Below, piece by piece: positions 11,498 through 59,363 of a stretch of DNA of 64,000 nt; the stretch's first letter is position 1; every line of letters starts with the position of its first letter. The position numbers and the translations under genes were made by a program. Source of the stretch: an uncultured bacterium (lineage in GTDB: Bacteria > UBP14 > UBA6098). The stretch is taken from positions 22,239 through 86,238 of the forward strand of contig CAZSHG010000001.1 of the NCBI GenBank assembly GCA_964606695.1, given 5' to 3'. The notes below the pieces were generated by a model that was not told where the DNA came from, searched no databases, and saw only the letters and a list, made by a program, of their open reading frames with translations.

Positions 11498-11519
11498 TAA
11501 AAAAAGTCGGTTAGAAACA

Positions 11520-11551
11520 AGGCGGCCCTTTTCGGGGCCGCCTTTTGTATT
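11520..11551. terminator. Rho-independent terminator (AGGCGGCCC-loop-GGGCCGCCT followed by TTTGTATTT)
   Basis: 9-bp perfect GC stem at 11520-11543 followed by a T-rich tract. It sits between convergent genes 9614..11497(+) and 11569..11937(-). Confidence 0.7.
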
Positions 11552-11568
11552 TATGCGGTTACATACAT

Positions 11569-11937
11569 TTAACTGAGTATCTTCTTCTGGCGGAAATATC
11601 CCAGAAGAAAGAAAAAGGCGGCAAACAGGTGGCCGAATGAAATAAGAAGCTGGGGAACCGTCCAGAATTCCGCCATACCCCCCACTTCGATTACCTTAAT
11701 CAAAGCGAATACAATGACCGCGCCAGAGAGCCACCCCCAGCTCATAGCCAGTTCCCCGCCCTTCATCATCTTGTTCAATTCCAGTGCAAGATACACGCCC
11801 AAAAGCAGGAACAGAACCGTAACGATATCCACGACTATCTGGAAGTTCTCGCTATCTTCCTGCGTGGGTTTTATCTGCGCGAAACAACTCCCGATAATGA
11901 GAATCGCCGCAATTAGAAAAATCCTTCTAGTTCTCAT
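11569..11937 (-). CDS. Small membrane protein (hypothetical), 3-4 TM helices
   Basis: 122-aa ORF with N-terminal signal/TM (MRTRRIFLIAAILIIGSCFAQ) and two further hydrophobic helices. It lies immediately downstream of the DUF4388 gene on the same strand. Confidence 0.5.
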   Translation of the reverse strand: MRTRRIFLIAAILIIGSCFAQIKPTQEDSENFQIVVDIVTVLFLLLGVYLALELNKMMKGGELAMSWGWLSGAVIVFALIKVIEVGGMAEFWTVPQLLISFGHLFAAFFFLLGYFRQKKILS

Positions 11938-11955
11938 CTATCCTCCTATGGTTGA

Positions 11956-27100: not shown

Positions 27101-27514
27101 CTCGGGATGAATCGGGGTTAAGTCTTCGTTCGGATCGAAGTCACGCGATCCAAACAACGTCAATTTGACGCCCCGGAGTTCAACGTTCTCAGTTCCTGAG
27201 AGTAAATCCAGGCGAAGAACCACGTTCTCGTGGCTCATACGAACGGGAACTTCCTCCCCGGTCGGGCTTAGCTCAAAGCTCGCACGTCTCCACGTGCTTG
27301 CTGGAGTATAGCTGGACACGGTCGAATAATCGGTCGTGTACCAGGAAGGAATATTGTCACCGTAATCGGGTCCACCTGGTGTCCCCTCTGGTGTAACAAC
27401 GTTGAAGGCGTTGCAGTACTGCCAGTCACTTCCACTCCCTCCTTGCGCGAATATCGCGCCGGCGGTCAAAAGAAAACTTAGCAGTAGGGCTGCAAATACG
27501 GTTTTTTTACCCAT
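18185..27514 (-). CDS. Giant secreted surface protein (3109 aa), Trp/Tyr/Asp-rich, with T9SS C-terminal sorting domain
   Basis: Uninterrupted 9.3-kb ORF. Signal peptide MGKKTVFAALLLSFLLTAGAIFAQ with AGGAGA RBS. No catalytic motif is recognisable. It contains a 'GWN' module near the C-terminus and ends with LPNPFNAVTAIKYELP...LEVYSVLGQKVATL...SGIYFYKISAGDFKATRKMTLMK (Por_Secre_tail). Confidence 0.8.
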   Translation of the reverse strand: MGKKTVFAALLLSFLLTAGAIFAQGGSGSDWQYCNAFNVVTPEGTPGGPDYGDNIPSWYTTDYSTVSSYTPASTWRRASFELSPTGEEVPVRMSHENVVLRLDLLSGTENVELRGVKLTLFGSRDFDPNEDLTPIHPESTAIHYSVDVTESDTLTGVQFYIDKGVTALSDVDILDRIDIMGIAEQLIIDTLIQPRDTYDPSSPSHTEDTLLEANKWSLDSTAANGWKWWSTTFYFEDAINIPYEGTFNSALYGLPFYRIWVALQMAGCHECGDVIGGIEGISNSDSFYVEIADREDLICYRYNAPIIDLVDMTSTLTDVLHGNPYPDPADASRWARSEMIKGWDEIPPFIQQLWPRNLISTNDWYSDSVLCEEINDSIFTADEEQPISVTTQDFGTCVDSAFMEIRYINDEFLGTSPGSQFPGRIDSIIWRNPLEYAYDDTNGGNETGWLWQLKHSWRNSGSGPWSTSGWTTMDNIHSEAFATWIHPACGTDSFVVMVGNDTTRTGTVVLPMFDDGAYVQVLFRCFSRTNNFRYDYGFTFSPGVVNDTIWTFKVDLSGPNAELNCPSPEGHDNETMEFAGSNVRRDYIEGSYVYWRWVADSLPTLLLDVYDDYHAVHDRTNHGIDIWPGGMGGAGINWRDFEITFAIEHCTGDWDTIIVNENDVNYGVWIDEENNGYDARMWINFEELITYHPGWAGLVPFASGDFVYVLLTELVDDPDYGQRWDTCMIGDWTLVPPYWNEPAWVIDPHPSGSWGIANGADGNYGTRNTQDNHVPVMWEAVGICSYYTEYAYDTLGIIRIDLEGPTAPDTFYYPPDQWVTSDSFQIITLNIYDQIACSMYDLDVEDMLYNRTSGVYSGSLDEEARLCVNLKVRGCDGSWHPYYHTGAGSIPDGRNFCVGEPDAVGLNLTKKYNEWGLRVTWDPYRTDTDEAHFRPGDKVCVTVYAWDNAITDCQAEDGVAGPVTGWDDDNDPWTPAEFDSASYSLFCSDGSLAHFVDCEVPSRNSGYDRLDPDYLYYEVSHIARWNFFVDCHPPIFTGADMSQVCNDTMYLYFHDVSANVHGMYCDEWVANIGIQHTELVEGADLLLIFTDTMTTPGVTYVDTIIFQDMKLSGGAYPLDIHMAYHDIPGRGYQYYYAELIKDPDDDRGAYVQLYGDGSEATCHFFQPYDQVRWELYAGDSPDVPWYPATQRTVNSGITYRWWHTYDSWSNPGTWFMSWRYGIHDYTDINVDTMDVTFWLDTTYDNYENPNWDLIQVDSLQIFPQTWLANVGWYNDEAYDAFMYPPHTYNYPPDLKGDYTNVWHAWMGRYINHDPLGMDPELEWEEGDSSMSSLMESRDPYVDFWVNDLNFIVADIYTCTDSIIWECLVGTDPDEDTLPFRVPHITIDLYDVDGALVWTVDEYYDCHCDPCFMSYYPSRTACVDWGRLHIGPIDQTEEWLYTIRRIDTLETDPALVTDTIIGWQHLDSIAIRFEFNVREPNDFASDTFFTKYVFRWDYVVDMQAPTAVFRDPDATTGYNEVNCELIHDSNHTIRLRLEDIVDGHVGCAPGTLMAPNWTTQWPIPAVDPTSDFVIYDFGTMPPVNAGMVWNPATHYLWSNEAFVIANCAEELSVADTMTIGTPGIEIYHGLDRSGPGIPVPVETHLDRDTIFIADSVYAEAIIQDRLGNYAMKTSRKVGLDNGLPEVKGFALSTWGMDTIGYDSLGVPILGDPYMHDWDINVFKLPWDVPDQDSIVGIYNFTDVCTVYVRLWFNDNMDMREADHLYGHIVRFQPHGWTHWFPVLPVETVGGGPGGLHYPLAQRYVDYRDITGVMPSARPGLSETDDSPMVPGGVESLDYGWNSDREWIGYLVIAGDGAMDGIGKLRVQGFDDNAGNHMLPIEYPIRIVTGDPEYRMIYWPRIDTLDDAHVDPWSGEPDDILTLSGWSISDPVLADSTRCSFYEDEDRMHPITAYWDNELAETDSVRFLVWWHEEPWPAGTTFTYDHTFYWLEDDMYSGNISIYGNTTWVSMPYDELDLLHEYYTTLGGAPVDYSNNELYATILFEAFSRFRPTNPYIADTLLNVLIDNERPDPQMTTSSGGQMIHGMHTVLPFGSTDLKVCWETNQSEQVDKMSIWLHSLIDDSNYMLYPAGGAPGLDFGIVDATSPLYYDPVDEVICLEYSDPSGLPAGMWTLSWQAFDGIHVVDTAESGVIGDYWQYYHPDCEFDFFDEDTLTILRPPFLARGDNLMDALNSVSANYPAVMESDDIFPWWDSAMEDMWPDWPTWGWIDTAAIAAAGMPDLWRVDSLHRVPQIMPVVQLTTFNNPDYSSGDPDPLMHPYVESGGYPGDSLYVLLEKLPTDIYVEYIDLNIQDYWGGNISGSNLEINVRLDDDDTVMVEGRTYWVYKWDVDDQDNRYDGLVTITATEHTFSIADSVYHDWDHLAYILLDTYDPTYEVSMLRSDDLTVPYKAINPIDYPDEVYIWVVNADEFLIDIDWDETVFDPATAGDPVSYWNYGNYIYTRMWDHWRITIDGMPHYGDDFDDPNDHLEARLWDDDLDAWDIHHPFWRQPDYMNGAMTPSSYEDADPIYTFGNQLAFFGDDVYTYEWDVAGLPEGLDAQGIAYLLGKARDAAGNVLDYSEARLSTSEGKLALVDIEAPTIDSALVLATGENFTAYVDAIWDNFLEDNFTNELGDGYVYVMVTVDTVGGFVEIGPFWVDETGAVATTPWGPVAPTPGDVVEVCAYDLAGNETCIDVDVVPEEHCCTYELCTDWNLIAISVEPDTTVDVFGGAPVYEMIGGTYIPVSAGTPLEAGMGYAVYPSSDMEVTLCGAPVESFDVTLEAGWNLIGATWTDVLFTAPDTDPAGAIDPTETRWYECGVDYHLTTTLEHCRGHLVMVTDPSGCVLHVPGARGGKVVYTVKDGQFAPLFTGKLVTDSRTLTFGAADIATENFDRGIDHYAVPAHVGQSEFVLGGGYDTDYRTTDSKIEWTVNATSNYRATLEVEGDWIVSLNGATYGDGDVVEITPGSHKLVADRVAIPDAFALGQNLPNPFNAVTAIKYELPTDTRVTLEVYSVLGQKVATLINGEQEAGYRSVVWDGSDDEGRPVPSGIYFYKISAGDFKATRKMTLMK

Positions 27515-39897: not shown

Positions 39898-40749
39898 TCA
39901 ATTATCCAGTTTTATTGGCGTAACAACTTCGCACCACATATCATTGAACTTATCCAGCGCAATTTGCGCGGTTTCGATATTTTCAAAAAATCCAAACAAA
40001 GCACTACCACTCCCGGTTAAAGCCGCGTGTAGTGCTCCATTCGAGATAAGCCTATCCAATATCCTTTTTGCCGCCGGATAATCATCAAAAAACACGGTTT
40101 GCAGGTCGTTACCTATCCTGCAGGCCTTCAATGCGGAATCCGGCAGGCGTAAACGTGAAATAATATTCTCCCTGCCGCCTTTTGTCAAGCCTTTTTTGGC
40201 GATATTATATGCCCGCGCGGTGGACATACCATAAAGCGGTTTGACAAGGAGAAAAGCGTAATCTTTATCGACATCGATATCCCGAACTATTTCGCCCCTG
40301 CCCGTAATCAAACTCGAACCGCTTCCGAAAAAGAACGGGACGTCACTGCCGACGATTCCCCCGATTTTGGCGAGGGTGGCACTATCCAGATCGAGATTGT
40401 AAATATCTCGAAGCCCCATTAATACCGTAGCCGCGTCGGAACTGCCTCCGCCGAGCCCGCTCTGGACGGGAATTCTCTTCCCTAAGTGAATTCCGGCACC
40501 CAATTCCGAACCGACAACCTGACATAAGGCCGCCCAGACTTTGGCAACCGTATTGCTTTCATCGAGTGGCAGAGAAGGATCGTTGGAAGATAATGCGAGA
40601 CCGGAATCCGTTTTTTCGATATCGATTCGGTCGAAAAGCGAAACGGCCTGGACTATCGACCAGATGTCGGTGTAACCGTCGGGACGTTCGCCAACAAGGC
40701 GTAAGCATAAATTAACTTTAGCGGGCGCTTTGAGACTCAGGCTTTTCAT
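39898..40749 (-). CDS. ispE: 4-diphosphocytidyl-2-C-methyl-D-erythritol kinase
   Basis: GHMP-kinase motifs APAKVNLCLRLVGERPDGY and IPVQSGLGGGSSDAATVL. Confidence 0.9.
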   Translation of the reverse strand: MKSLSLKAPAKVNLCLRLVGERPDGYTDIWSIVQAVSLFDRIDIEKTDSGLALSSNDPSLPLDESNTVAKVWAALCQVVGSELGAGIHLGKRIPVQSGLGGGSSDAATVLMGLRDIYNLDLDSATLAKIGGIVGSDVPFFFGSGSSLITGRGEIVRDIDVDKDYAFLLVKPLYGMSTARAYNIAKKGLTKGGRENIISRLRLPDSALKACRIGNDLQTVFFDDYPAAKRILDRLISNGALHAALTGSGSALFGFFENIETAQIALDKFNDMWCEVVTPIKLDN

Positions 40750-42399: not shown

Positions 42400-43653
42400 A
42401 TGAGAAAATTCCTATTAATCCTGACGATCTCCACCACTATACTTTTCGCCCAGATCGATTCCGTCCGTTTTTTCGCGTATCAGATACAGATGCTCGACGA
42501 ACCGGGCGCGATAGATTCCATAGTAGAATCGAGATACGATATGGTCATCCTCGAACCTACTCGCACGGAACGGGGGATGGAGGATTTCGACGCACGCGGT
42601 ATGGTCGCAACGATAGAATCCTCACCGGGAAGTTATCTGGAAAATAAAATTACTCTCGCCTATATCGATATCGGCGAAGCGGAGGACTGGCGATACTACT
42701 GGGAACCCTGGTGGGTGCCGCCAACAGAAACGGAACCCGGAATACCGGATTTTATGGTAACAGCCGATCCAGACGGTTGGGAGGGAAATTATCCGGTGGC
42801 TTATTGGGACATTAGATGGCAAAATATAATGGTCAATGACGATTCGAGTATGCTCCGTAGGATCATCGCGGACGGATTCGACGGTATCTATATTGATTGG
42901 GTAGAGGCTTACGACGAAACAAGTGTATTAGCACGAGCCGATAGTCTCGGTATAGATGCGGAAAGTGAGATGATAAATTTCATCCGGTCGATCAGAGATA
43001 CAGCACAGTTACTCGACCCGGATTTCATTTTGGTAGCTCAAAATGGAGCCGACCTCAAAGACGGCCATCCCGAATATTTCGATATCATCGATGGCATCGC
43101 GCAGGAGGACCTTTCTTTTTACGGCGAGGCCGACGTCGATTGGGGCGATCCCCTCGGCGGAGATATTCCGCAGGATTCGGAATATCAAACTTACCTGCTC
43201 GGCCTTCTCGACGATTATCTTGCGCACGATATCCCGGTTTTCACCGTAGATTACTGCCTGATACCAGCAAACATAGATTCCGCTTATAATTTCGCCATCT
43301 CCCACGGTTATATCCCCTTCGTTTCGCAGACCTCCCTTTCCCGCCTTCCGAACTATTACCCTCCAGGTTATACCCAAATTTATGAATCGATAAGGTTTCC
43401 GAACAGGCAAAAAATATTCGCGCATCCGAATCCCTTTAATTCAACCGTTCGAATATCTGTTCCGGGCGATAATTTCGATAATCCAGCTATCGAAATTTAC
43501 GATTTATTCGGAAAAATAATCGCCCGCCTTTCGATAAAAAATAACTCCATGGAATTAACCTGGCATCCCGATAACAACGTTGGGTCGGGGTTGTATTTAA
43601 TCAAAACTCCCTCATCGCCCACCTTCCAGGGAAAGATAATTTATCTGAAATAA
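42400..43653 (+). CDS. GH114/TM1410-like TIM-barrel glycoside hydrolase domain fused to T9SS C-terminal sorting domain
   Basis: Signal peptide. Motif LAYIDIGEAEDWRYYW plus DGIYIDWVEAYDE resembles the GH114 (endo-alpha-1,4-polygalactosaminidase/PelA-hydrolase) family. C-terminus AHPNPFNSTVRISVP...IEIYDLFGKIIARL...SGLYLIKTPSSPTFQGKIIYLK is a T9SS CTD. Confidence 0.6.
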   Translation: MRKFLLILTISTTILFAQIDSVRFFAYQIQMLDEPGAIDSIVESRYDMVILEPTRTERGMEDFDARGMVATIESSPGSYLENKITLAYIDIGEAEDWRYYWEPWWVPPTETEPGIPDFMVTADPDGWEGNYPVAYWDIRWQNIMVNDDSSMLRRIIADGFDGIYIDWVEAYDETSVLARADSLGIDAESEMINFIRSIRDTAQLLDPDFILVAQNGADLKDGHPEYFDIIDGIAQEDLSFYGEADVDWGDPLGGDIPQDSEYQTYLLGLLDDYLAHDIPVFTVDYCLIPANIDSAYNFAISHGYIPFVSQTSLSRLPNYYPPGYTQIYESIRFPNRQKIFAHPNPFNSTVRISVPGDNFDNPAIEIYDLFGKIIARLSIKNNSMELTWHPDNNVGSGLYLIKTPSSPTFQGKIIYLK

Positions 43654-43688
43654 CATATTGACTTTATTCGCTATATCTTTATACTCGA

Positions 43689-44402
43689 ATGCATGATTAT
43701 TCGATGTATAATATCATTCTTATTATAGCCATGATAGTTCAATGCGTATCTTGCAAGGACGTCGAGAAAGGTGAAAAAGAAGAAATGAGTAAACTCAAAC
43801 AGATGAATACCCCAATTTTCTGGGCGGAAGGCCATCCGGGAAAACTGGAAAGAGAAAATTGGGAAATAAAAGTAACCGGATTATGCGATAATCCCCGTAT
43901 TTTCACCTGGGACTATTTGATGAGTATGCCAAAAAGTTACGCCGACGCTCGCCTCACCAGTGTTACCAGATGGTCTGTCGGCGGCAAATGGAGCGGCGTT
44001 AAGCTATCCGACATATTTGATGCAGTCGGCGCCAGCCCGGATGTGAAATACGTTCGATTTTGGTCCTATCGAAAGATCTACGACACAAGCATCCCAATCG
44101 AAATAGCTCGTAAAGAACTAACTCTGCTGGCATGGGAATTCGACGGCGAATACCTGACCGAGAACTACGGCGGTCCGGTGCGGGCATTCGTGCCATATTT
44201 ATGGGGATATAAATCCGCTAAAAGCGTTGTTAAAATCGAGTTGATGGATCACTATGTCCCCGGATATTGGGAAAAGAGAGGTTATTCTGACGAAGCCCAT
44301 ATCGAAGCCGGCAATATCCTGGATGTCAACACTGGCAAACGCCGTCCGATACCCTCGGGCGAAGTTAGGGAGTTCCTGGACGAGAAACCCGATTCCCAAT
44401 AG
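43689..44402 (+). CDS. Molybdopterin-dependent oxidoreductase, sulfite-oxidase family (YedY/MsrP-like catalytic domain)
   Basis: Oxidored_molyb signature TSVTRWSVGGKWSGVKLSDIF...GGPVRAFVPYLWGYKSAKSVVKIEL. Lipoprotein-like N-terminus. Confidence 0.7.
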   Translation: MHDYSMYNIILIIAMIVQCVSCKDVEKGEKEEMSKLKQMNTPIFWAEGHPGKLERENWEIKVTGLCDNPRIFTWDYLMSMPKSYADARLTSVTRWSVGGKWSGVKLSDIFDAVGASPDVKYVRFWSYRKIYDTSIPIEIARKELTLLAWEFDGEYLTENYGGPVRAFVPYLWGYKSAKSVVKIELMDHYVPGYWEKRGYSDEAHIEAGNILDVNTGKRRPIPSGEVREFLDEKPDSQ

Positions 44403-44405
44403 GAT

Positions 44406-44819
44406 ATGAAAATGAAAGTTTTATTTTTATGCACCGGAAATTCCGCTCGTAGCCAGATGGCAGAAGCTATCCTGCGAGACCGCGCTGGAGATAGATTTTA
44501 CGTGCGAAGCGCCGGAATCCAACCGACGGAAGTTAAACCAATGGCAATTAGAGTCCTCCGTGAGAAGAATATCGATACATTGGATCTTCAATCGGAGCAT
44601 ATCGAAAAATATATCGAGGACGATTTCGATTACGTAATTACATTATGCGATCACGCGGCGGAAAACTGCCCGATATTCCCCGGCGACGCAACCCGTTTGC
44701 ACTGGGGATTAGAAGATCCCGCTGAAATCGAAGATCCAGTTCTGCGATTGAGAAAATTCAGGGAAATAAGAGATAAAATCGGGGAAAGAATCGACCACTG
44801 GCTCGCCGAAAGCGATTAA
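44406..44819 (+). CDS. arsC: Arsenate reductase, low-molecular-weight phosphatase family (thioredoxin-coupled ArsC)
   Basis: P-loop CTGNSARS (CX5R) near the N-terminus. Downstream Cys residues (LCDHAAENCP) typical of LMW-PTP-type ArsC. Confidence 0.8.
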   Translation: MKMKVLFLCTGNSARSQMAEAILRDRAGDRFYVRSAGIQPTEVKPMAIRVLREKNIDTLDLQSEHIEKYIEDDFDYVITLCDHAAENCPIFPGDATRLHWGLEDPAEIEDPVLRLRKFREIRDKIGERIDHWLAESD

Positions 44820-45676
44820 TAGGAACGTTCCAGGATAAAATCGGCAATAGTATTGAATGCGGAATTGTCCTTATCCGGCGGCAACGCTTTTTTGGCCTGG
44901 TCTATTAAATCTCTTGCTATCTCGCGGCTCTTCTCGACTCCATAAATCGCCGGATATGTTGTCTTCTGCCGTTCCTGGTCAGACCCGACCGGCTTGCCCA
45001 ACTCCTCCTGATCCGCGACGATATCCAGAATATCATCAACAACCTGGAATGCCAGCCCCATTTTGCGTCCGTATTGCGTAATCGCCATCAAATCCCGTTT
45101 CGAAGCGTCCGCCATAATAGCGCCTACTCGAAGACTTGCGGTTAATAGAATGGCCGTTTTTTTTAGATGGATTTTCTCGACCATTTCCGGCGTAGGCGTT
45201 CTTCCCTCGGCCTCCAGGTCATAAACCTGGCCCCCGACAAGTCCTCCCGTCCCAATTGCCTTAGCGACGTCGGAGATAATTTCAATACGCCCGCCCATCG
45301 CGAGAAATTCAAAAGCCATAGCGTGAAGCGCGTCGCCGGCAAGAATCGCCATAGCGTCGCCGAAAACAACGTGATTGGTCGGTTTCCCGCGTCTTAATTC
45401 GTCGTTGTCCATGCTCGGTAAATCATCGTGAATAAGACTATAAGTGTGAATCAATTCCAATCCACAGGCGGGAGCGTAAATAACGTCCTGATCGCCGCCC
45501 GCCCATCTATATGCCAATACCGCCAGAACCGGCCTTAACCGTTTGCCGCCCGCAAAAACCGAATATCTCATCGCGCGGTGAAGTTCTACTGGCTCCAGAT
45601 CCTCTCCGGGCATAAGGCGATACAACCACTCTTCGACTTTTTCGGCTTCTTTTTTCAGGATTTCGGATGCATCCAT
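44816..45676 (-). CDS. ispA: Polyprenyl diphosphate synthase (farnesyl/geranylgeranyl diphosphate synthase)
   Basis: First Asp-rich motif LIHDDLPSMDNDELRRGKPT and second motif FQVVDDILD. GGKRLRPVL N-terminal motif. Confidence 0.9.
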   Translation of the reverse strand: MDASEILKKEAEKVEEWLYRLMPGEDLEPVELHRAMRYSVFAGGKRLRPVLAVLAYRWAGGDQDVIYAPACGLELIHTYSLIHDDLPSMDNDELRRGKPTNHVVFGDAMAILAGDALHAMAFEFLAMGGRIEIISDVAKAIGTGGLVGGQVYDLEAEGRTPTPEMVEKIHLKKTAILLTASLRVGAIMADASKRDLMAITQYGRKMGLAFQVVDDILDIVADQEELGKPVGSDQERQKTTYPAIYGVEKSREIARDLIDQAKKALPPDKDNSAFNTIADFILERSY

Positions 45677-45763
45677 TTTCTTCTCCTCACGAATTCAATA
45701 TATAATATCCTGGGAAATGAGCAAGACAAATCGCAAAATAACATCGATTAAAAATAGCCCCTG

Positions 45764-45791
45764 TTGACATTTAATTCCCCGCGACTATAAT
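45764..45791 (+). promoter_or_regulatory. Near-consensus sigma70 promoter (TTGACA-16 nt-TATAAT) immediately upstream of hypE
   Basis: TTGACA at 45764-45769 and TATAAT at 45786-45791. The ATG at 45795 lies only 3 nt after the -10, implying a leaderless or near-leaderless transcript. Confidence 0.45.
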
Positions 45792-45794
45792 AAG

Positions 45795-46814
45795 ATGATT
45801 ATGAGATATAAAAAACACGACAGAATCAGACTCATCGACGGCGAAGGCGGCAGAGCGACATCCCGGCTGGTAAGGGAGCTATTTCTCGAAAAATTCGATA
45901 ACCCGTTACTCGCCAAACTCAACGATTCTGCGGTCTGTGATATCGAATCGAACCGAATTGCGTTTACCACGGACGGTTTCGTTATCGATCCGCTGGAATT
46001 CCCCGGCGGAGACATCGGCAAGCTGGCGATATGCGGCACGGTTAATGATCTCGCGACTTCCGGCGCGAAACCCGTGATGCTGTCAGCTTCCTTTATATTA
46101 GAAGAAGGCCTCGAAATCGACCTTCTCGAAAGGGTCGTGAAATCGATGGCGAAAACTGCCGCGGAAGCCGATGTCAAAATAGCCTGCGGCGACACCAAGG
46201 TCGTCCAGAAAGGCAAAGGCGATGGGATTTATATCACTACGACCGGCGTGGGCGTCCTACCGGTAAACCTGACAATCGAACCGTCGCGAATCCGCCCGGG
46301 CGACTCCATTATCGTCAGCGGGCCGATAGCCCAACACGCATCCGCAATAATAGCTCTCCGCGAAGGCCTGAAAGCCGCCCCGCCTATTGAAAGCGACTGC
46401 GCGCCCCTGGGCAAAATGGTTCAGAACGCACTCGAAGACGTCCCCGAAATCCACGCCATGCGCGACCCCACCAGAGGCGGCCTGGGCGGTATCATCCTCG
46501 AACTGGCTACCCAGTCGGGCACTAAAATAATCCTCGAAGAAACAGAAATCCCTATCGAAAATAGAATTCACAACCTATGCGAACTCTACGGCTACGAACC
46601 GCTCTCCATGGCCTGCGAAGGTAGAATGGTGTTCATTCTGCCTGCCGATTCGGCAAGCGAAATGCTAAAATCTTTGCGTGAAAGCCCTTACGGCAAAAGC
46701 GCGAAAATTATCGGGCATGTCGAAAAGGGCGAAGGCGTGACACTCGAAACAAAATCCGGCGGCAGACGCAAGCTGGTTCCCCCGGAAGGTTCCCCTCTGC
46801 CGAGGATTTGCTAA
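45795..46814 (+). CDS. hypE: [NiFe]-hydrogenase maturation protein HypE (AIR-synthase-related)
   Basis: Strong similarity to the HypE N-terminus (DGEGGRATSRLVRELF...FTTDGFVIDPLEFPGGDIGKLAICGTVNDLATSGAKP) and the conserved C-terminal PRIC (the carbamoylated Cys). Confidence 0.85.
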   Translation: MIMRYKKHDRIRLIDGEGGRATSRLVRELFLEKFDNPLLAKLNDSAVCDIESNRIAFTTDGFVIDPLEFPGGDIGKLAICGTVNDLATSGAKPVMLSASFILEEGLEIDLLERVVKSMAKTAAEADVKIACGDTKVVQKGKGDGIYITTTGVGVLPVNLTIEPSRIRPGDSIIVSGPIAQHASAIIALREGLKAAPPIESDCAPLGKMVQNALEDVPEIHAMRDPTRGGLGGIILELATQSGTKIILEETEIPIENRIHNLCELYGYEPLSMACEGRMVFILPADSASEMLKSLRESPYGKSAKIIGHVEKGEGVTLETKSGGRRKLVPPEGSPLPRIC

Positions 46815-46817
46815 ATT

Positions 46818-47306
46818 ATGAAAAAACAAATCATAATATGGTTGATAGTCATTTTAATAGGCTTTGCAAACGCACACAGTCCTATTTCATATTTCAAAAT
46901 CGACCACGATAAATGTATCGGTTGCGGGAAATGTGTTATCCATTGCCCTGTCGATGCCATCGAATTGATAGATGGCAAGGCCGTTATCGATGCCGACAAA
47001 TGCATCAAATGTGGGATGTGCTACAAAATTTGCCCCATAGATGCCATCGATCCAGTTTACCAGAGTGACACCACCACTACCAGAGTCGATTCGGTCGGAA
47101 CCGACAGTCCAACGGGAAAAAACCCCTCCATTGGTCCAGTTACAACCAATTCCTGTTATGGTTGCACTCAAATATGCCCGGCAAATACTATCCAGATAGA
47201 CGATATAAAAGACATCGATCTGATAAAATGCTTGCTTTATGGTAATTCCATCCTTAACTGTCCATCGCAAATCATAATACGCTCTTCTGCCGAAAAGGAT
47301 AGCTGA
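46818..47306 (+). CDS. Membrane-anchored 2x[4Fe-4S] ferredoxin-domain protein with an additional Cys cluster
   Basis: N-terminal hydrophobic helix (IIIWLIVILIGFANA). CIGCGKCVIHCP and CIKCGMCYKICP motifs (two 4Fe-4S clusters). Further CYGCTQICP motif. Confidence 0.75.
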   Translation: MKKQIIIWLIVILIGFANAHSPISYFKIDHDKCIGCGKCVIHCPVDAIELIDGKAVIDADKCIKCGMCYKICPIDAIDPVYQSDTTTTRVDSVGTDSPTGKNPSIGPVTTNSCYGCTQICPANTIQIDDIKDIDLIKCLLYGNSILNCPSQIIIRSSAEKDS

Positions 47307-48253
47307 TGTTCGGTTACGCCGGGGAAGGCTTTTTTCTGGGGCTATCTCTCGGCGTAACATGTCTTGGAACCTGCCTGCCGGTTCTGCTACCCTACCTTTT
47401 TGTCGAGAAGAGAAAATTTCGTAAGAACATAACCGGGGTATTATGGTTTCTGGCGGGGAGGTTAATCGGTTATATATCTTTCGGTGTAATCGCCGGGGCT
47501 TTAGGCGGTCAGGTTCCGGAATCATACCGTGAACCGATAACCGGCGCGGCCTATATTGTCCTCGCTACGCTGATGGTATATACGGCCTTCCGCAGACGCA
47601 ATCTGGAACCCAATTGCCCGGTTAAAAAACACAAGAAACTTTTAACCCATCCGATTATTTTCGGTCTTATTCTCGGTTTTAATCCCTGCCCTGCGTTTCT
47701 GATTGCCGCCGGGCGAGCATTCGAGAGCGGCGGTGCGCTATCCGGGGCGATATTCTTTACCGGTTTTTTTGGAGGAACATCGGTGTTCTTCCTTCCATTC
47801 AGTATCTTTGGCGAACTGGGAAGGATGAAGTTCTTCCGAATCATGGCGAAAATCCTGGCGGTTGCAGTTGCTATTTGGTTCATATGGATAGGTGGAAATT
47901 CAATAGCCCATTCGATTAAATCCGCTAACCGTCCCGAATACAGCGTCGTCGATCCATTACAGCTGGACACGATTTACGTTTCCGGCGATTCCAGCGCTAC
48001 GGCTTATTTTAATTCTCTGGTTGACAAAAGTATCGATGCGGAATTATTATATATAGTTATTGATTCGATTCCGGACGGTGCATTCGTAGTTAATTTTGGC
48101 GAAATGCCCGACACGTCGTCATTGTTGGCCAGGGATATCGGAATCGTTCATTCGGCGCCGGATTCCAACTCGGTGAAATCGAGTGCGGAAATCATTAAAA
48201 CCTATGGTTTCAAGAGTGAACCCGGCAAGGGTTTCTACTTCGGACCGAAATGA
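47306..48253 (+). CDS. CcdA/DsbD-like transmembrane thiol-disulfide transporter domain fused to a C-terminal soluble domain
   Basis: TM1 motif GVTCLGTCLPVLLPYL and a later FNPCPAFLIAAG resemble the two conserved Cys-containing helices of CcdA/DsbD-beta. About 6 TM helices, then a ~110-aa hydrophilic domain. Start overlaps the upstream stop. Confidence 0.5.
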   Translation: MFGYAGEGFFLGLSLGVTCLGTCLPVLLPYLFVEKRKFRKNITGVLWFLAGRLIGYISFGVIAGALGGQVPESYREPITGAAYIVLATLMVYTAFRRRNLEPNCPVKKHKKLLTHPIIFGLILGFNPCPAFLIAAGRAFESGGALSGAIFFTGFFGGTSVFFLPFSIFGELGRMKFFRIMAKILAVAVAIWFIWIGGNSIAHSIKSANRPEYSVVDPLQLDTIYVSGDSSATAYFNSLVDKSIDAELLYIVIDSIPDGAFVVNFGEMPDTSSLLARDIGIVHSAPDSNSVKSSAEIIKTYGFKSEPGKGFYFGPK

Positions 48254-48259
48254 GTTAAA

Positions 48260-49531
48260 ATGCCTGATACTCTACATCGAAAACGTCGCAAAACGCGAAA
48301 AACATCGCGCCCTATCGGTATCGGTCTAACTATTTTTTTCGCATTAGTAATTTTCATTGCTATAGCCTATATACTTATCAGAGGTTTGCCCGGAGACAAC
48401 TCCTCCATACCGGAAACCCCGCCTCCACCGCTTCCAACCGCCGACAGCGAAAGCACATCTTCAGTAGAATATCAGGATTACAGCGAGACATCGAACCAGA
48501 TCGAATCTCGCCCGACGGCAACGGAGGCTTCGCTGGATTCCGCTCTATATAGGGCATTAGCAAGATTAGGAGCACCTAAAAATAAGCTTCGAGTTCGAAA
48601 GGGCGAGGAACAGGAAGGTATCGGCGGAAATGTTTTCATAATCACTGCCAATATCAGCAAGGCATTTCCGATGGCAATGGCGAATCACAATGTTCAGGAA
48701 GCCTGGCGTGGTGCGGGAGGCGATATAATCGACGCCGTCGAAACCCGTTATGGCCGCGAAGTCGAGATTTCCGTGGGAATCGGCGGAATTGTCATGAGAA
48801 GAATCACTCTTCGACGCGAAATCTCCGACAAGCCTCTAACCGGCACGGTCGCGCTTATTATCGACGATTTTGGCGACATCGAATTCGAGCAGGTTGAAGG
48901 TTTCCTCGACCTGCCAATCGAATACACAGCCGCGGTAATTCCCTTCGAGAAATACACGACCGAGTCCGCGTCAGCCCTTGCGGAAGAGGGCATCGAAATT
49001 ATCGTCCATATGCCTATGGAACCTGAAAACACACAGAAATTCGACCCCGGTCCAAAGGCCATTTATGTGAAACTGCCGGAAGATGAGATCAACAAGCGAA
49101 TTCGCCAGGCTATCGAACAGATACCCACCGCGGTCGGCATGAACAACCACATGGGTAGCAAGGCCACAGCCGACAAACCCACAATGAAAACCGTCGCCGA
49201 TGCGCTCAAGGATTCCGGGCTGTTTTTCATCGACAGCAGGACTTCCCGATACACCTGCGCGATGAAAGTCATGGGCGAATACAGCATTCCGACGACGTGC
49301 CAGAACGGCAATATCGATCTCGTTGATGACACTTCCGCTATTGCGCAGAGGTTTATCGAGCTGGCGTTATCCAGCAGGGAAACCGAGGATGGCGTCATGA
49401 TTGTCGGGCACGCTCGCCCGAAAACCCTTGCCGCAATCGAACGAGTCCTGCCCGACCTGGAAAAATGGGGAATCGAGTTCATCCCGGCAAGCGAACTGGT
49501 AGCGAGACGCCAGAAGAAATCCGATGGCTAA
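48260..49531 (+). CDS. Divergent polysaccharide deacetylase family protein (YibQ-like)
   Basis: N-terminal TM plus Pro/Ser-rich linker. C-terminal region ALIIDDFGD...AAVIPFEKYT...IIVHMPMEP...NNHMGSKAT...FFIDSRTS matches the YibQ / divergent polysaccharide deacetylase family. Confidence 0.75.
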   Translation: MPDTLHRKRRKTRKTSRPIGIGLTIFFALVIFIAIAYILIRGLPGDNSSIPETPPPPLPTADSESTSSVEYQDYSETSNQIESRPTATEASLDSALYRALARLGAPKNKLRVRKGEEQEGIGGNVFIITANISKAFPMAMANHNVQEAWRGAGGDIIDAVETRYGREVEISVGIGGIVMRRITLRREISDKPLTGTVALIIDDFGDIEFEQVEGFLDLPIEYTAAVIPFEKYTTESASALAEEGIEIIVHMPMEPENTQKFDPGPKAIYVKLPEDEINKRIRQAIEQIPTAVGMNNHMGSKATADKPTMKTVADALKDSGLFFIDSRTSRYTCAMKVMGEYSIPTTCQNGNIDLVDDTSAIAQRFIELALSSRETEDGVMIVGHARPKTLAAIERVLPDLEKWGIEFIPASELVARRQKKSDG

Positions 49532-50060
49532 AGTATCGAAAATATCGCGCATAATCACGGTCGATAATATCCGACTGCATCTTGAATCACCTGAGGCGTG
49601 GCGGGAAATTATTGAACACACCCCTCCCGACGAGGAACCCGAACTACCTTCGACACAGGAGATGCGCGAGCAGATAATCGCGGAGTTGGTGGAATTGCTG
49701 TTACCCTCGGAGGCTGTCCAGCATCAGGGGCGTCTTTGCCAGGATTTAATTTTCCGCGAACGACGCGCGCCGACGGCTTTAGGACACGGCATCGCGGTGC
49801 CGCACGTCCGCACCGACCATGTCCGCGATATAGCGATAGGTTTCGGGCGCACGGATTATCCGGTCGATTGGGATTCGCCGGACGGTAAGCCGGTTGACCT
49901 CTTTTTCATCATGGTCGCGCCCACCTACGACGACACGATTTACAACCGCCTCTGGCCGAAAATGGCCTCCATCCTTCAATTCGAACAAACCCGCGAACAG
50001 TTGCGTTCCGCGGAAGAGCCGGGCGAGATTATCGCGATAATCAAATATTCCGAAATGTGA
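49524..50060 (+). CDS. PTS EIIA type-2 domain protein (nitrogen-regulatory PtsN-like)
   Basis: RERRAPTALGHGIAVPHVRTD (active-site His context) and ...DLFFIMVAP... are characteristic of EIIA-Ntr/fructose-type domains. Start overlaps the YibQ gene end. Confidence 0.65.
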   Translation: MAKVSKISRIITVDNIRLHLESPEAWREIIEHTPPDEEPELPSTQEMREQIIAELVELLLPSEAVQHQGRLCQDLIFRERRAPTALGHGIAVPHVRTDHVRDIAIGFGRTDYPVDWDSPDGKPVDLFFIMVAPTYDDTIYNRLWPKMASILQFEQTREQLRSAEEPGEIIAIIKYSEM

Positions 50061-50101
50061 TCCGATTCAGGATTTATGATTTATAATTGGTGACTGTCAG
50101 C

Positions 50102-50139
50102 ATTTCCCTGCAAACCCGGCGGGACGCCGGGGCTATTAG
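50102..50139. repeat. 38-nt intergenic direct repeat, copy 1 (ATTTCCCTGCAAACCCGGCGGGACGCCGGGGCTATTAG), contains a 7-bp GC hairpin
   Basis: Near-identical second copy at 50227..50265 (one indel, one mismatch). Each copy contains the palindrome CCCGGCG-GGAC-CGCCGGG. Confidence 0.6.
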
Positions 50140-50165
50140 CTTTTGAGTAAGTTTCACCTAAAAGA

Positions 50166-50188
50166 CCGACCGTCCCCGGTCGGGTTTC
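50166..50188. terminator. Hairpin CCGACCG-TCCC-CGGTCGG with flanking T-runs on both strands (bidirectional terminator between ptsN-like and ftsX)
   Basis: Perfect 7-bp stem, followed by GTTTCGG on the + strand and by TCTTTTAGG on the - strand. It lies between convergent genes. Confidence 0.5.
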
Positions 50189-50226
50189 GGAGAATATTGT
50201 CATTTGATGATCGATGACCTTTGGCG

Positions 50227-50265
50227 ATTTCCCCTGCAAACCCGGCGGGACGCCGGGGTTATTAG
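50227..50265. repeat. 38/39-nt intergenic direct repeat, copy 2
   Basis: ATTTCCCCTGCAAACCCGGCGGGACGCCGGGGTTATTAG. Matches copy 1 at 50102..50139 with 1 indel and 1 mismatch. Confidence 0.6.
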
Positions 50266-50340
50266 GTTGAAACGCGAACCATTATTTAATCTATTTTTGT
50301 TGTTATTATCGCCGACGAGGATTTCCTTTCGGGAAAAATG

Positions 50341-51198
50341 CTAATACCTGAGGTATTTGCGGAGAGCTATTACGCTACCGACTCCGCCGAATGCTCCCCC
50401 GATAATAACTATTGCGATGTGAATCAAGATTGGCAGGGAAATCAGGCCGGGTATTACGTATGCGGACACTTCCGTCAGTCCCCATGTGATGAGCCATGCG
50501 AGACCGCCGGAAAACGAACCGTGCAGGACGCCCTCGAAGATGAAGGGCAGGCGGATGAAACCGTTGGACGCGCCTACCAGTTGCATTATCGATATGCTGT
50601 CCGCGCGCTGTGCGATTGCGAGACGAACGGTGTTCGTGATTATCACGGTGGCGGAGAAAAGGAGTATGACTCCCCATCCGATAGTTAATATAAGGAAGAT
50701 GCCGCTTAGTTTCGCCAGCCGATATGCGATTTTATTTGGGGCGGAGAGTTCGACTACCAGGTCGTTTTCTCGGTATTTATCCGCGAGTTCGGTTACGGCC
50801 TCACCCATCGACAGCGCCTGCGAAAGCCTTACTCTTATCGACGGCGGGAAGGGGTTCGAGGGCAGACCGCGCAGGAGTTCGTCGCCATATTCGTCTATGA
50901 ATTCGATGCGTGCGCGTTCGGCTGTAACGAATTCCACGGACTCGACGCCCTTTTCGCCCTCCAATTTCGATATGAGATCCGACGCGTGGGCTTTGGTTGC
51001 GGAATTCTGCAGGTAAAATTCCAGATGGACCTTGCGTTTGAGCGTGCCGAGGGCGCTTCGGAGGTTCAATGTAACTATTGCGAAAGCTCCCAGAATTACC
51101 AGCGCGATGGTTATCGTGGTAATCGACAGAAACGTGACGAAACTCCGCCGCCAGAACGACGAAATAGCCTGGCCTATCGCGTAGAAGAAGGCTCTCAT
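50341..51198 (-). CDS. ftsX: Cell division permease FtsX
   Basis: 285 aa, 4 TM helices, large periplasmic loop between TM1 and TM2. Gene start overlaps the ftsE stop. Conserved ftsE-ftsX order. Confidence 0.85.
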   Translation of the reverse strand: MRAFFYAIGQAISSFWRRSFVTFLSITTITIALVILGAFAIVTLNLRSALGTLKRKVHLEFYLQNSATKAHASDLISKLEGEKGVESVEFVTAERARIEFIDEYGDELLRGLPSNPFPPSIRVRLSQALSMGEAVTELADKYRENDLVVELSAPNKIAYRLAKLSGIFLILTIGWGVILLFSATVIITNTVRLAIAQRADSISIMQLVGASNGFIRLPFIFEGVLHGSFSGGLAWLITWGLTEVSAYVIPGLISLPILIHIAIVIIGGAFGGVGSVIALRKYLRY

Positions 51199-51878
51199 GC
51201 CATCGCCCCCGCCGGTCTGTCCCCGATTAGGACGCCGTTTTCCAGTTCCAGAACGCGTTTGGGAACGGTGTCTATTAGCGCGGTGTCGTGGGTTGCCATA
51301 AGCACTGCGGTGCCTCTGGCGTTTATTTCGAAGAATAATTCGAGAAGCTCGTCGGTGGCGCGGGGGTCGAGGTTTCCGGTCGGTTCGTCCGCGAGGAGGA
51401 GGACTGGATTGTTCGCCAACGCCCTGGCCACGGCAATTCTCTGCTTTTCGCCGCCGGAAAGTTCATGCGGATAGGATTTCGATTTATGCGTCAGGCCGAC
51501 CATCGCCAGAAGTTCCAGCACGCGCTTTTTGATGTATTTGCGTGGCTGTCCGGTAACTTTCAGCGCGAAGGCGACGTTCTCCCAGGCGGTCATTTCTTTC
51601 AGCAATCGAAAATCCTGGAAGACTACCCCGATTTTTCTGCGCATTTTCGGGATTTCCTCTCGCTCGATAGAGACGGAATCGAATCCGGCCACGACAATAT
51701 TCCCCTCGTCGGGTCGCTCCTCCATGAAGATCAATGAGAGAAGAGTGCTTTTCCCGGCGCCGGAAGATCCTACCAGAAATGCAAATTCGCCCTCCGTCAT
51801 TTTGAAATCCACGCGGGAAAGCGCCGTCCAATTTTTGCCGAAAGATTTCGTAACGTTATTTACTTCGAGAATCGCCAT
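51195..51878 (-). CDS. ftsE: Cell division ATP-binding protein FtsE
   Basis: Walker A GSSGAGKST. ABC signature LSGGEKQRIAVARAL. Walker B LLLADEPTGNLD. Typical FtsE N-terminus. Confidence 0.9.
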   Translation of the reverse strand: MAILEVNNVTKSFGKNWTALSRVDFKMTEGEFAFLVGSSGAGKSTLLSLIFMEERPDEGNIVVAGFDSVSIEREEIPKMRRKIGVVFQDFRLLKEMTAWENVAFALKVTGQPRKYIKKRVLELLAMVGLTHKSKSYPHELSGGEKQRIAVARALANNPVLLLADEPTGNLDPRATDELLELFFEINARGTAVLMATHDTALIDTVPKRVLELENGVLIGDRPAGAMA

Positions 51879-58064: not shown

Positions 58065-59363
58065 ATGCGAAAAACAGAATTACTCATTGCCATTGTCCTG
58101 TTAGCGCTTTCCTGTAGCGGCAATCCTCAATTAACTGTCGAATCGGAAACATATACGGCCGGCACCTTGATGCCCAAAGCGAAAATCGAGGTCTGGTTCG
58201 TCCTCAAAAATACCGGCGACGCGCCTCTGGTCATCGAGAATATTCGTTCCATGTGCGATTGTATCACGATACAGGCCGCACCGGACACCATAGCGGTGGA
58301 CACCGGCGATAGTATCATGGTCGAATATATCGCCCCGGAAGAACCCGGCAGGGACGAAAGCAGTATTATGGTGCGCACCAACACCGAACCAAAGAACACC
58401 AAATTGACCATCGTTTCGAATGTTTTAGAAAGTAAGCTCGAAAAGGACGATTCGTCTATCGTTATCGTGCCCTTCCAGAATAAAGGAGTTCCGGGAGGCA
58501 ACGAGTTCTCTCTGGAGATTTTCCGTTACCTGACCGAAAACCTACCGGAGAGTTTTCGCCCGATGAATCCCAACACATATACCGAAGCCATTCAGGCGGA
58601 TCCCGGTTACGGAACCCAACCTATCCACGACGTTGCGCGGAAACTGAACCACGCGCTCGGTATCCGTTACGGGGTTTTCGGCGAGGTTAGACCTAATCCC
58701 CGGGGCGGCATCGACGCGAATATTATGCTCGTTGACGGATTCTTCCATCTTCCCATCGGAAGGATTCTCCAGGGAGTCCCGGAGGAGCGGTTATTAGCCG
58801 CATTATCCGACACGCTCAATTCATTCCTGACCAATCCCCGCGAATATATCAAACAGGCGTTGATGGTGGAATTACAACAGAAATGGGCCGAACAACGCCA
58901 AAAACTTATCAACAATCCCGCGCCGGAAATAACCGCCAAAGACATCAGGACGGGCGAGGAAATTTCATTAAGCGATTTCCGGGGTAAACCACTCGTTCTG
59001 CAATTTTTCTCCACCGACTGCGAACACTGCGAGGAGGAAATGGATTGGCTTTCCGGAATGGTTACCGAACATGAAGATATCGCCGCATTGGGTATCTCCG
59101 TTAATGTGGGTGAACGCGATTCCGTAATAGAATATATCCAGGATAAGAATTTAAAATATCCTGTAATTTTACCGGACGAAGAGGGCGAAAAACAACTCGA
59201 TCCATATTATGGCGGTGCGACGCCTCAGACGGTCATTATAACGCCGCAGGGCGTCGTCGCGCAGTCGTTCGTAGGCTTCTCGCACGGGGTCATGGATAAC
59301 TTCGAGAAGCTACTCATCGCGATGATAAAACAAAAAGAACCTACCGCACCCAAAACGGAGTAG
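58065..59363 (+). CDS. Lipoprotein with DUF1573 domain fused to a TlpA/ResA-like thioredoxin-fold (redoxin) domain
   Basis: Lipobox LALSCSG. DUF1573 signature (...FVLKNTGDAPLVIENIRSMCDCITIQ...). C-terminal redoxin domain with FRGKPLVLQFFSTDCEHCEEEM (CxxC). Confidence 0.7.
   Translation: MRKTELLIAIVLLALSCSGNPQLTVESETYTAGTLMPKAKIEVWFVLKNTGDAPLVIENIRSMCDCITIQAAPDTIAVDTGDSIMVEYIAPEEPGRDESSIMVRTNTEPKNTKLTIVSNVLESKLEKDDSSIVIVPFQNKGVPGGNEFSLEIFRYLTENLPESFRPMNPNTYTEAIQADPGYGTQPIHDVARKLNHALGIRYGVFGEVRPNPRGGIDANIMLVDGFFHLPIGRILQGVPEERLLAALSDTLNSFLTNPREYIKQALMVELQQKWAEQRQKLINNPAPEITAKDIRTGEEISLSDFRGKPLVLQFFSTDCEHCEEEMDWLSGMVTEHEDIAALGISVNVGERDSVIEYIQDKNLKYPVILPDEEGEKQLDPYYGGATPQTVIITPQGVVAQSFVGFSHGVMDNFEKLLIAMIKQKEPTAPKTE

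Follow-up and report, generated by a model that had tools for sequence, protein, structure and literature searches.

The window analysed here, a 64-kb stretch of contig CAZSHG010000001.1 from an uncultured bacterium, carries a hypE gene that stands apart from all other hydrogenase maturation (hyp) genes and is the first of five densely packed genes on the plus strand (45764-50060; all positions are numbered within the window). It is followed by genes for a ferredoxin, a DsbD_2 membrane protein, a YibQ-type 'divergent polysaccharide deacetylase' and an EIIA-Ntr (PtsN)-like protein. The detachment of hypE and its fixed new neighbourhood are real features of a clade whose closest homologues bearing taxon-specific names belong to candidate division Zixibacteria. 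Literature searches gave no account of this arrangement, as an earlier annotation made without database searches (hereafter the sequence-only reading) had supposed. The arrangement is real, conserved and apparently undescribed, and it most likely represents canonical HypE chemistry in an unusual genomic setting. To the fuller explanation, namely a relocated, variant but canonical HypE that is co-transcribed with an independent envelope redox module, we give an even chance of being correct.

The order hypE-ferredoxin-(DsbD_2)-YibQ-EIIA was found on every clade contig read (L001, L002-4, L005/6, L007/8, L011/12, L013/14 and L097-L111, about 20 distinct), the DsbD_2 gene being usually present, and the flanks of the block are wholly different from contig to contig. 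A comparison of hypE neighbourhoods, as the sequence-only reading had proposed, thus returned the same non-hyp block throughout the clade. Wherever the recovered sequence extends far enough yibQ is in the block, and the EIIA-Ntr-like gene is also conserved there. In L005 (11757-12165) the membrane part of the DsbD_2 protein has been deleted, leaving a 75-amino acid (aa) open reading frame (ORF) that keeps the end of the C-terminal domain (...HDFYFKVD) and whose stop overlaps the yibQ start. L007 has no DsbD_2 gene in the block and has an insertion encoding a 305-aa GGDEF-domain membrane protein between hypE and the ferredoxin gene (10984-12323); its ferredoxin has a VAGC lipobox, a long polar tether and the second di-cluster domain only. 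HypE homologues at least 56% identical formed only 17 clusters among 5.8 billion searched, 14 homologues of the window DsbD_2 protein were found, and a DNA pattern for the tail of the clade proteins (PEG[AS]PLPRIC followed by a stop) matched only 15 contigs of 241 million metagenome records.

We regard the genes of the block as operon-like because they are separated by only 3, -1, 6 and -8 nucleotides (nt), in order, because a scan of 44500-50500 detected no plus-strand terminator-like site inside the block, and because the promoter preceding hypE is conserved in the clade (see below). The ferredoxin stop and the DsbD_2 start share the letters TGATG (1-nt overlap). An operon-like run from hypE through a ferredoxin and a polytopic protein to YibQ had been described by the sequence-only reading and agrees with the 3-nt gap and the 1-nt overlap after it; the fifth gene, for a PTS_EIIA_2 protein, had gone unmentioned. 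This last protein scores 56.5 bits against TIGR01419 (PtsN), under the cut-off of 138.7. A farnesyl-diphosphate-synthase-like gene lies upstream of hypE and is divergent from it, with a 118-nt gap between the two, and no Rfam family was matched in a scan of 43500-50600.

That hypE has no other hyp gene within 10 kb had been noted before, and this holds for the whole window. Searches by tblastn with E. coli HypA, HypB, HypC, HypD and HypF and with HycE, HycG and HycI found nothing else in the 64 kb, queries of HypF, HypC and HypD from L009 gave no further match there, and Pfam scans of the remaining large ORFs tested revealed no hydrogenase genes. Similarly, none of the clade contigs encodes another Hyp or Hyc homologue at a distance of up to 10 kb from hypE. 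As a control set we took 79 canonical hypE loci among the matches listed in a scan of species-representative genomes with the pattern MRDPTRGGL, in which L014 was the only clade locus. Among these listed matches, hypD lies directly upstream of hypE in approximately 72 of the 79, in many phyla and usually together with hypC and hypF. The hypD-linked loci include three genomes of the Fibrobacteres-Chlorobi-Bacteroidetes (FCB) group (L051, L075 and L090), and the loci without an upstream hypD are contig edges and Aquificaceae. The HypE next most similar to those of the clade (P0020, 53% identity) is also encoded in a canonical hypF-hypC-hypD-hypE cluster. Scattered hyp genes are familiar from cyanobacteria, Aquificae and sulfate reducers, in which a hypE away from hypCD can still serve hydrogenases, but the clade differs from these cases in that its hypE is locked together with the same four non-hyp genes. 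Zixibacteria RBG-1 has been described as encoding the [NiFe] hydrogenase MvhADG/HdrABC 'and its associated maturation system' (PMC3903129), and Zixibacteria have also been reported to have [NiFe] hydrogenases of group 4 (PMC6349859); the Shark Bay supplement, when checked for Zixibacteria hyp genes, contained no hyp entries.

A full-length HypE ending in PRIC, as first described, is confirmed by the translation and by the NCBIfam equivalog TIGR02124, against which the window protein scores 404.9 bits (cut-off 251.6) over model positions 1-332, the full length. It has AIRS (PF00586) and AIRS_C (PF02769) domains, is 44% identical to E. coli HypE and has Desulfovibrio vulgaris HypE (2z1t, E = 1e-85) as its best solved relative. 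It resembles the HypE proteins of known structure (2z1t, 2i6r, 2z1e and 3vti) in belonging to the family with a PurM-type two-domain fold and in having the catalytic Lys and Glu and the PRIC Cys, but differs from those systems in that the clade gene is never next to hypC, hypD or hypF and instead heads an operon-like series of non-hyp genes. Key residues in the window protein are D15, E17, K135, C274-E275-G276-R277 and C339 of PRIC. K135 (in GDTKVV) and E275 (in ACEGR) are invariant in the clade and align with E. coli K134 and E272, which Tominaga et al. in 2013 are said to have identified as the catalytic bases of HypE (Lys134 and Glu272). In canonical HypE the Cys of the PRIC tail is carbamoylated by HypF (PMC12134894), and the terminal PRIC is invariant in 17 of 17 clade members. 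Of 88 columns with at least 97% conservation among canonical HypE, 77 are retained, including GDTK135VV, E275, DPTRGG and PRIC, and 100 positions are invariant across 16 clade members, each 56-83% identical to the window HypE.

Judged from its sequence, the clade HypE is a divergent variant subtype, moderately different from canonical HypE. Canonical near-invariant positions are changed from His8 to Asp, Asn271 to Cys and Leu262 to Tyr or Phe (E. coli numbering), with Lys274 to Arg accompanying the first two changes; the clade proteins have DGEGG for HGSGG, ACEGR for ANEGK, DPTRGGLGG for DPTRGGLAT, and the tail PEG(S/A)PLPRIC compared to GEQLPRIC. HypE of Aquificaceae (L027 4952-5941 and L045 119-1108) has the same three replacements, an acidic residue at His8, Cys at Asn271 and Arg at Lys274, and is encoded with hypB, a hycE-like gene, hypA and hypF on its flanks. 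The three positions (His/Asn/Lys versus acidic/Cys/Arg) seem to co-vary as an alternative active-site arrangement and, because this triad is found in hyp-linked Aquificaceae HypE, it is compatible with hydrogenase maturation and is not evidence of a new function. The Aquificaceae proteins are like those of the clade in that their genes are unlinked from hypD and in having the same triad, but their genes lie among hypA, hypB, hypF and a hydrogenase-like gene, they lack the other residues specific to the clade, and they are only ~46% identical to the clade. Two canonical matches, P0094 and P0105, also have Cys at the Asn271 position.

The second gene of the block encodes a ferredoxin that had been described as anchored by a transmembrane (TM) segment and as having three Cys clusters. 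Its N-terminus is indeed hydrophobic but resembles a cleavable general secretory (Sec) signal peptide rather than a membrane anchor, and the clusters correspond to a pair of intact CxxCxxCxxxCP motifs and a second di-cluster domain that has decayed. In 33 of 35 members of the ferredoxin family the n-region has a charge of +2 to +4 and the hydrophobic core spans 13-22 aa, often with an Ala-x-Ala-like site after it, and in the two exceptions the called starts look N-terminally truncated. The n-region has no twin arginine in the window protein or in 34 of the 35 family members examined. We predict from these features that the N-terminus is a Sec or lipoprotein signal and that the protein lies outside the cytoplasm, a location that makes it unlikely to serve cytoplasmic HypE or HypCD. 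We also considered an RnfB-like N-out/C-in anchor, but the distribution of charges, the shortness of the h-regions and the presence of a lipobox speak against it.

Homologues of the ferredoxin begin with a signal sequence, followed by two 2x[4Fe-4S] domains that are joined by a variable linker of 20-90 residues rich in Ser, Thr, Pro and Glu; the family norm is 16 Cys and four clusters, compared to 13 Cys in the window copy. Domain 1 of the latter matches Fer4_21, Fer4_7 and Fer4 (E = 2e-19 to 2e-18), and domain 2 has undergone an in-frame decay that leaves five of eight Cys and has removed three residues, at a place where six homologues retain both CxxCxxCxxxCP motifs. The window ferredoxin is 45% identical to that of its nearest relative, compared to 83% for HypE and 77% for DsbD_2 of the same relative. 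A ferredoxin exported by Sec with its Fe-S clusters would be odd because the periplasmic Fe-S proteins known to us are exported by twin-arginine translocation (Tat). The family is like NapG and HybA in comprising multi-cluster ferredoxins predicted to lie outside the cytoplasm, and its L095 and L096 members are encoded near Fer4_5 (NapH-like) proteins. However, NapG and HybA use Tat twin-arginine signals whereas this family has Sec-type or lipoprotein signals lacking the arginine pair, and it further differs in its two di-cluster domains, its long Ser/Thr/Pro/Glu-rich linker and the lack of a reductase partner in the block.

The third gene encodes the protein previously called CcdA/DsbD-like. 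This description holds for the Cys residues in TM1 and TM4 and for the six helices, but the family is DsbD_2 (PF13386) rather than DsbD (PF02683), and there is an additional C-terminal domain. Topology prediction, also proposed in the sequence-only reading, gave six helices by hydropathy and positive-inside counts, with charges on alternate loops and both termini outside the cytoplasm. Invariant in the 14 homologues are C19-x3-C23 in TM1, C104 in the cytoplasmic TM3-TM4 loop and P127-C128-P129 in TM4. The protein had no match to PF02683, the only extra hit being a below-cut-off chance match (E = 0.0017), and none of the NCBIfam models matched it. AlphaFold gave a low predicted local distance difference test score (pLDDT) for the membrane part (34-71) and 80-92 for residues 211-315. 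In a Foldseek comparison the model resembled the CcdA nuclear magnetic resonance structure 5vkv weakly (probability 0.91, TM-score 0.52, E = 0.22), and no solved structure matched residues 211-315 significantly. In a set of 1.84 billion representative proteins, the only matches to the C-terminal domain outside the family were short stretches of repetitive giant proteins. The likeness to CcdA and DsbD accordingly consists of six TM helices, the TM1 and TM4 Cys (the latter in Pro-Cys-Pro) and a weak fold resemblance, and the differences are the CxxxC of TM1, the invariant cytoplasmic-loop Cys, the Cys-free periplasmic domain and the absence of a thioredoxin-like partner from the block. No thioredoxin-fold partner of the ResA/TlpA/CcmG type was found in the block or in the blocks of relatives. 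About 10 kb downstream of the DsbD_2 gene, outside the conserved block, 58065-59363 encodes a 432-aa protein with DUF1573, Ig-like and AhpC/TSA-Redoxin domains; it is of the kind of periplasmic thioredoxin-fold thiol-disulfide oxidoreductases that usually partner CcdA-type proteins. Metal transporters are among the superfamily relatives of DsbD_2, but nickel permeases typically have His-rich motifs, and a role as nickel permease was rejected for this protein as its motifs are of Cys rather than His.

A profile search with the ferredoxin family returned members of the block first and then further tandem ferredoxins with signal peptides, including three contexts without hypE, the hosts of which are probably FCB-group bacteria. 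In L094 (6431-8546) the ferredoxin gene comes after a CapC-like gene and a gene for a 369-aa protein of no recognised family. L095 (71-8660) has a same-strand cluster of eight genes encoding a small signal-peptide Fer4 protein, a 401-aa protein, a DsbD_2 homologue, two sensor-kinase-like proteins, a sigma-54 response regulator, a NapH-like Fer4_5 protein and, adjoining the latter, the ferredoxin. The DsbD_2 homologue is full length (33% identity over 319 aa, E = 6e-53), and the 401-aa protein has no Pfam match and looks like an outer-membrane beta-barrel. In L096 (8001-13092) the ferredoxin gene is near those for an ArsP_1 permease, a Fer4_5 protein and another barrel-like protein (the barrel-like proteins of the two contigs being 401-417 aa). 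Because of these contexts we consider that the ferredoxin goes with envelope and membrane redox proteins independently of hypE, L095 being the one case of ferredoxin together with DsbD_2 but without hypE. Clusters of the L095 and L096 type could encode an iron-sulfur-based envelope electron conduit, in which the NapH-like protein and the putative outer-membrane barrel could by analogy be an iron-sulfur counterpart of porin-cytochrome conduits.

In our preferred reading, the window HypE would take a carbamoyl group from HypF onto Cys339 and, using ATP, convert it to thiocyanate, from which [NiFe] hydrogenases receive their CN ligands. Its gene would, in a small lineage of Zixibacteria, have left the hypCDEF neighbourhood and become fixed as the first gene of a five-gene operon with a strong constitutive-type promoter and often little or no leader, encoding a HypE subtype with Asp/Cys/Arg for His8/Asn271/Lys274 in common with Aquificaceae. 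The ferredoxin and DsbD_2 would form a separate cell-envelope module, in which the ferredoxin lies outside the cytoplasm and DsbD_2 plausibly keeps that Cys-rich protein functional by moving reducing equivalents (or possibly a soft metal) through the membrane; YibQ and EIIA-Ntr would complete a mixed housekeeping operon. We consider HypE to be functional and probably canonical because of its full-length equivalog match, the 77 retained columns, the triad in hyp-linked Aquificaceae HypE and the reports of hydrogenases in Zixibacteria. The neighbours appear to be a separate module because signal peptides and a lipobox place the ferredoxin in a different compartment from HypE, because the other genes of the block persist in L005, which has lost the membrane part of DsbD_2, and in L007, which has no DsbD_2, and because DsbD_2 and a signal-peptide ferredoxin occur without hypE in L095. 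If this is the only hypE of the lineage, it defines a variant HypE subtype with a co-varying triad common to Aquificaceae and indicates that a maturation gene can become firmly embedded in an unrelated operon, both of which would help annotation as well as studies of structure and function in CN-ligand synthesis.

Several observations weigh against this reading. The linkage of hypE and the ferredoxin gene is kept on about 20 contigs with HypE identity down to ~51% and unrelated flanks, the two genes are always retained together within the Zixibacteria clade, and such conserved adjacency usually signals a functional link. Identity of clade to canonical HypE averages 47% (maximum 53.8%) compared to 60% among canonical sequences, in a comparison set chosen by similarity to the clade, and TIGR02124 scores are 381-405 bits in the clade compared to 447-484 for operon-encoded HypE (~80 lower). 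There are 14 clade-specific HypE positions, and the Aquificaceae share only five of 16 alignment columns that distinguish the clade. We know of no route by which Fe-S clusters could enter a Sec-exported protein, and the support for hypF, hypCD and hydrogenases in Zixibacteria comes from the literature at the level of the phylum. The linkage and the divergence of the clade favour the main rival, a neofunctionalised HypE paralogue that has kept its ATP-dependent dehydratase chemistry on the C-terminal Cys but has ceased to feed HypCD. Its partners would be encoded in the same operon; it could, for instance, help to build or operate the exported Cys-rich ferredoxin, or release cyanide or thiocyanate via the extra active-site Cys274, with a canonical hypE elsewhere serving the hydrogenases. 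Besides the strict linkage amid shuffled flanks and the lower model score, this explanation draws on the lack of any hyp or hyc gene within 10 kb on clade contigs compared to the adjacent hypD of most canonical loci listed, on the replacement of residues at least 97% conserved (His to Asp, Asn to Cys beside the catalytic Glu, and Leu to Tyr or Phe), and on E. coli HypE being 42% identical to the clade but 50% to other canonical sequences. We nevertheless hold it to be somewhat unlikely, given that Aquificaceae have the acidic/Cys/Arg triad in a HypE whose gene lies among hyp genes, that the catalytic residues and PRIC tail are invariant, that HypE is cytoplasmic and the ferredoxin, the C-terminal domain of DsbD_2 and probably YibQ are predicted to be outside the cytoplasm, and that the ferredoxin/DsbD_2 pair occurs without hypE in L095. 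To our knowledge no HypE has a non-hydrogenase role, and literature searches found none, which also counts against a paralogue. A second canonical hypE in these genomes, or the lack of hypF and hypCD, would make this the first HypE-type enzyme with such a role.

A related possibility, which we consider improbable, is that the ferredoxin and DsbD_2 represent a Tat-independent means of placing [4Fe-4S] proteins outside the cytoplasm, for which a HypE-type enzyme could have been recruited as cytoplasmic partner rather than, or besides, serving hydrogenase maturation, and in which DsbD_2 could keep exported Cys reduced, a service that CcdA performs for apocytochromes c. Independently of this possibility, multi-cluster ferredoxins bearing Sec or lipoprotein signals would go against the rule of Tat export for cofactor-bearing redox proteins. 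This polyferredoxin family is the more surprising by-product of the analysis. The original proposal, that CN-ligand synthesis by HypE is coupled to the ferredoxin and the DsbD-like protein in hydrogenase maturation, was not borne out and we now judge it very unlikely. In such a scheme the pair could, for instance, provide the electrons that reductive CN transfer or the HypD cluster requires, or it could import nickel. In its favour, the genes are operon-like and always adjacent, the superfamily relatives of DsbD_2 include metal transporters, and a review describes both the HypD electron donor and the source of the CO ligand as unresolved (PMC12134894). However, a ferredoxin with a Sec-type signal or lipobox should not meet cytoplasmic HypCD or HypE, its second domain is decayed in the window genome, DsbD_2 is dispensable, being missing from some blocks, and has Cys motifs rather than the His-rich motifs of nickel permeases, and the pair occurs without hypE in L095; moreover, E. 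coli ferredoxin has been excluded as HypD donor according to unpublished data cited in the same review (PMC12134894). A decaying hypE copy, that is a pseudogene-like relic without function, could be suspected from the isolation of hypE and from the adjacent decaying ferredoxin, but is extremely improbable with an intact ORF, 100 positions invariant across 16 clade members, catalytic residues and PRIC tail kept, and a strong conserved promoter. The degenerate paralogue that had been put forward as the alternative is effectively refuted by this pattern of conservation.

Table 1. Features of the hypE block, in window coordinates.
Feature	Position	Strand	Details
Sigma-70-type promoter	45764-45791	+	TTGACA 45764-45769, 16-nt spacer, TATAAT 45786-45791
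hypE	45795-46814	+	339 aa from ATG 45795 or 337 aa from likelier ATG 45801; ends PLPRIC
Ferredoxin (Fer4 protein) gene	46818-47306	+	162 aa, hydrophobic N-terminus
Predicted Sec-type signal peptide of ferredoxin	46818-46874	+	MKKQIIIWLIVILIGFANA, then HS; predicted from sequence
Intact 2x[4Fe-4S] domain	46896-47048	+	C33-x2-C36-x2-C39-x3-C43-P; C62-x2-C65-x2-C68-x3-C72-P
Decayed second di-cluster domain	47136-47273	+	residues 107-152; CYGCTQICP and CLLYGNSILNCP
DsbD_2 membrane protein gene	47306-48253	+	315 aa, PF13386
Six-helix DsbD_2 domain	47306-47914	+	PF13386, E = 3.7e-19
Cys-free acidic alpha/beta C-terminal domain	47918-48250	+	~110 aa, predicted periplasmic, lineage-specific
Possible internal promoter	48021-48050	+	TTGACA-18-TATTAT, 11/12, inside DsbD_2 gene, ~210 nt before yibQ
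YibQ-type 'divergent polysaccharide deacetylase' gene	48260-49531	+	PF04748, E = 5.8e-62; N-terminal membrane helix
EIIA-Ntr (PtsN)-like protein gene, last of block	49524-50060	+	PTS_EIIA_2 PF00359, E = 8.8e-27

The perfect TTGACA-16-TATAAT promoter noted upstream of hypE was confirmed, and it was the sole 12/12 match in a promoter scan of 44500-50500 (Table 1). A comparable TTGAC(A/T)-16/17-TAnnnT element precedes hypE in 11 of 11 clade loci having upstream sequence, the intergenic regions of which are otherwise not alignable. The distance from the -10 to the hypE start is 3 nt in the window (9 to the second ATG) and 2 nt in L097 (8 to the second ATG), where ATGATTATG is identical to the window, followed by 8 nt in L005, 9 nt in both L002 and L110, 10 nt in L109, 16 nt in L099 and L108 (which have identical upstream sequence), 19 nt in both L001 and L098, 25 nt in L101 and 40 nt in L007. 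Because transcription usually begins ~7 nt past the -10, the window transcript is expected to start at ~45797-45801 with translation from ATG 45801, the product of which (MRYKKHD..., 337 aa) has the same length as close homologues. Taking a leaderless start to be one with the -10 about 6-9 nt before the start codon and no Shine-Dalgarno motif, ATG 45801 (9 nt) has this geometry and ATG 45795 (3 nt) does not, and no Shine-Dalgarno-like motif was found upstream of the window hypE. The leaderless transcript proposed in the sequence-only reading is thus plausible, and hypE effectively leaderless, if translation begins at ATG 45801, but not from ATG 45795, which is too near the -10 to be transcribed. 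A short or absent leader is not a clade-wide property of hypE, as other clade loci have 16-40 nt.

Elsewhere in the window, Shine-Dalgarno-like motifs are present at only about half of the 45 genes, TATACT lies 3 nt before ATG 43689 and TAGAAT 7 nt before ATG 58065, and -10-like hexamers are also found just upstream of the starts of 39898-40749(-) and 51195-51878(-). Short or absent leaders may therefore be common in this genome and not peculiar to hypE. The DNA of L001 and L105 preserves the hexamers of the possible internal promoter; that of L011 does so in part and that of L002 does not. The hexamers could serve yibQ and ptsN or could be a by-product of conserved codons, their conservation being possibly incidental because they lie within coding sequence (LVDKS...LLYI).

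Pfam scans of the ORFs flanking the block revealed unrelated genes only. Two giant ORFs, 13258-18030(-) of 1590 aa and 18185-27514(-) of 3109 aa, lie between a region syntenic with the upstream genes of L007 (DHDPS, DapB, Usp and a histidine-kinase-like gene) and a polysaccharide-export cluster, and L001, L002 and L011 likewise have giant proteins encoded in the flanks of the block. Upstream of the divergent prenyl-diphosphate synthase gene, 43689-44819 encodes an MsrP/sulfite-oxidase-like molybdopterin protein together with a thioredoxin-type ArsC/LMW phosphatase; L011 has the pair at the same position, and L001 has only the molybdopterin protein there.

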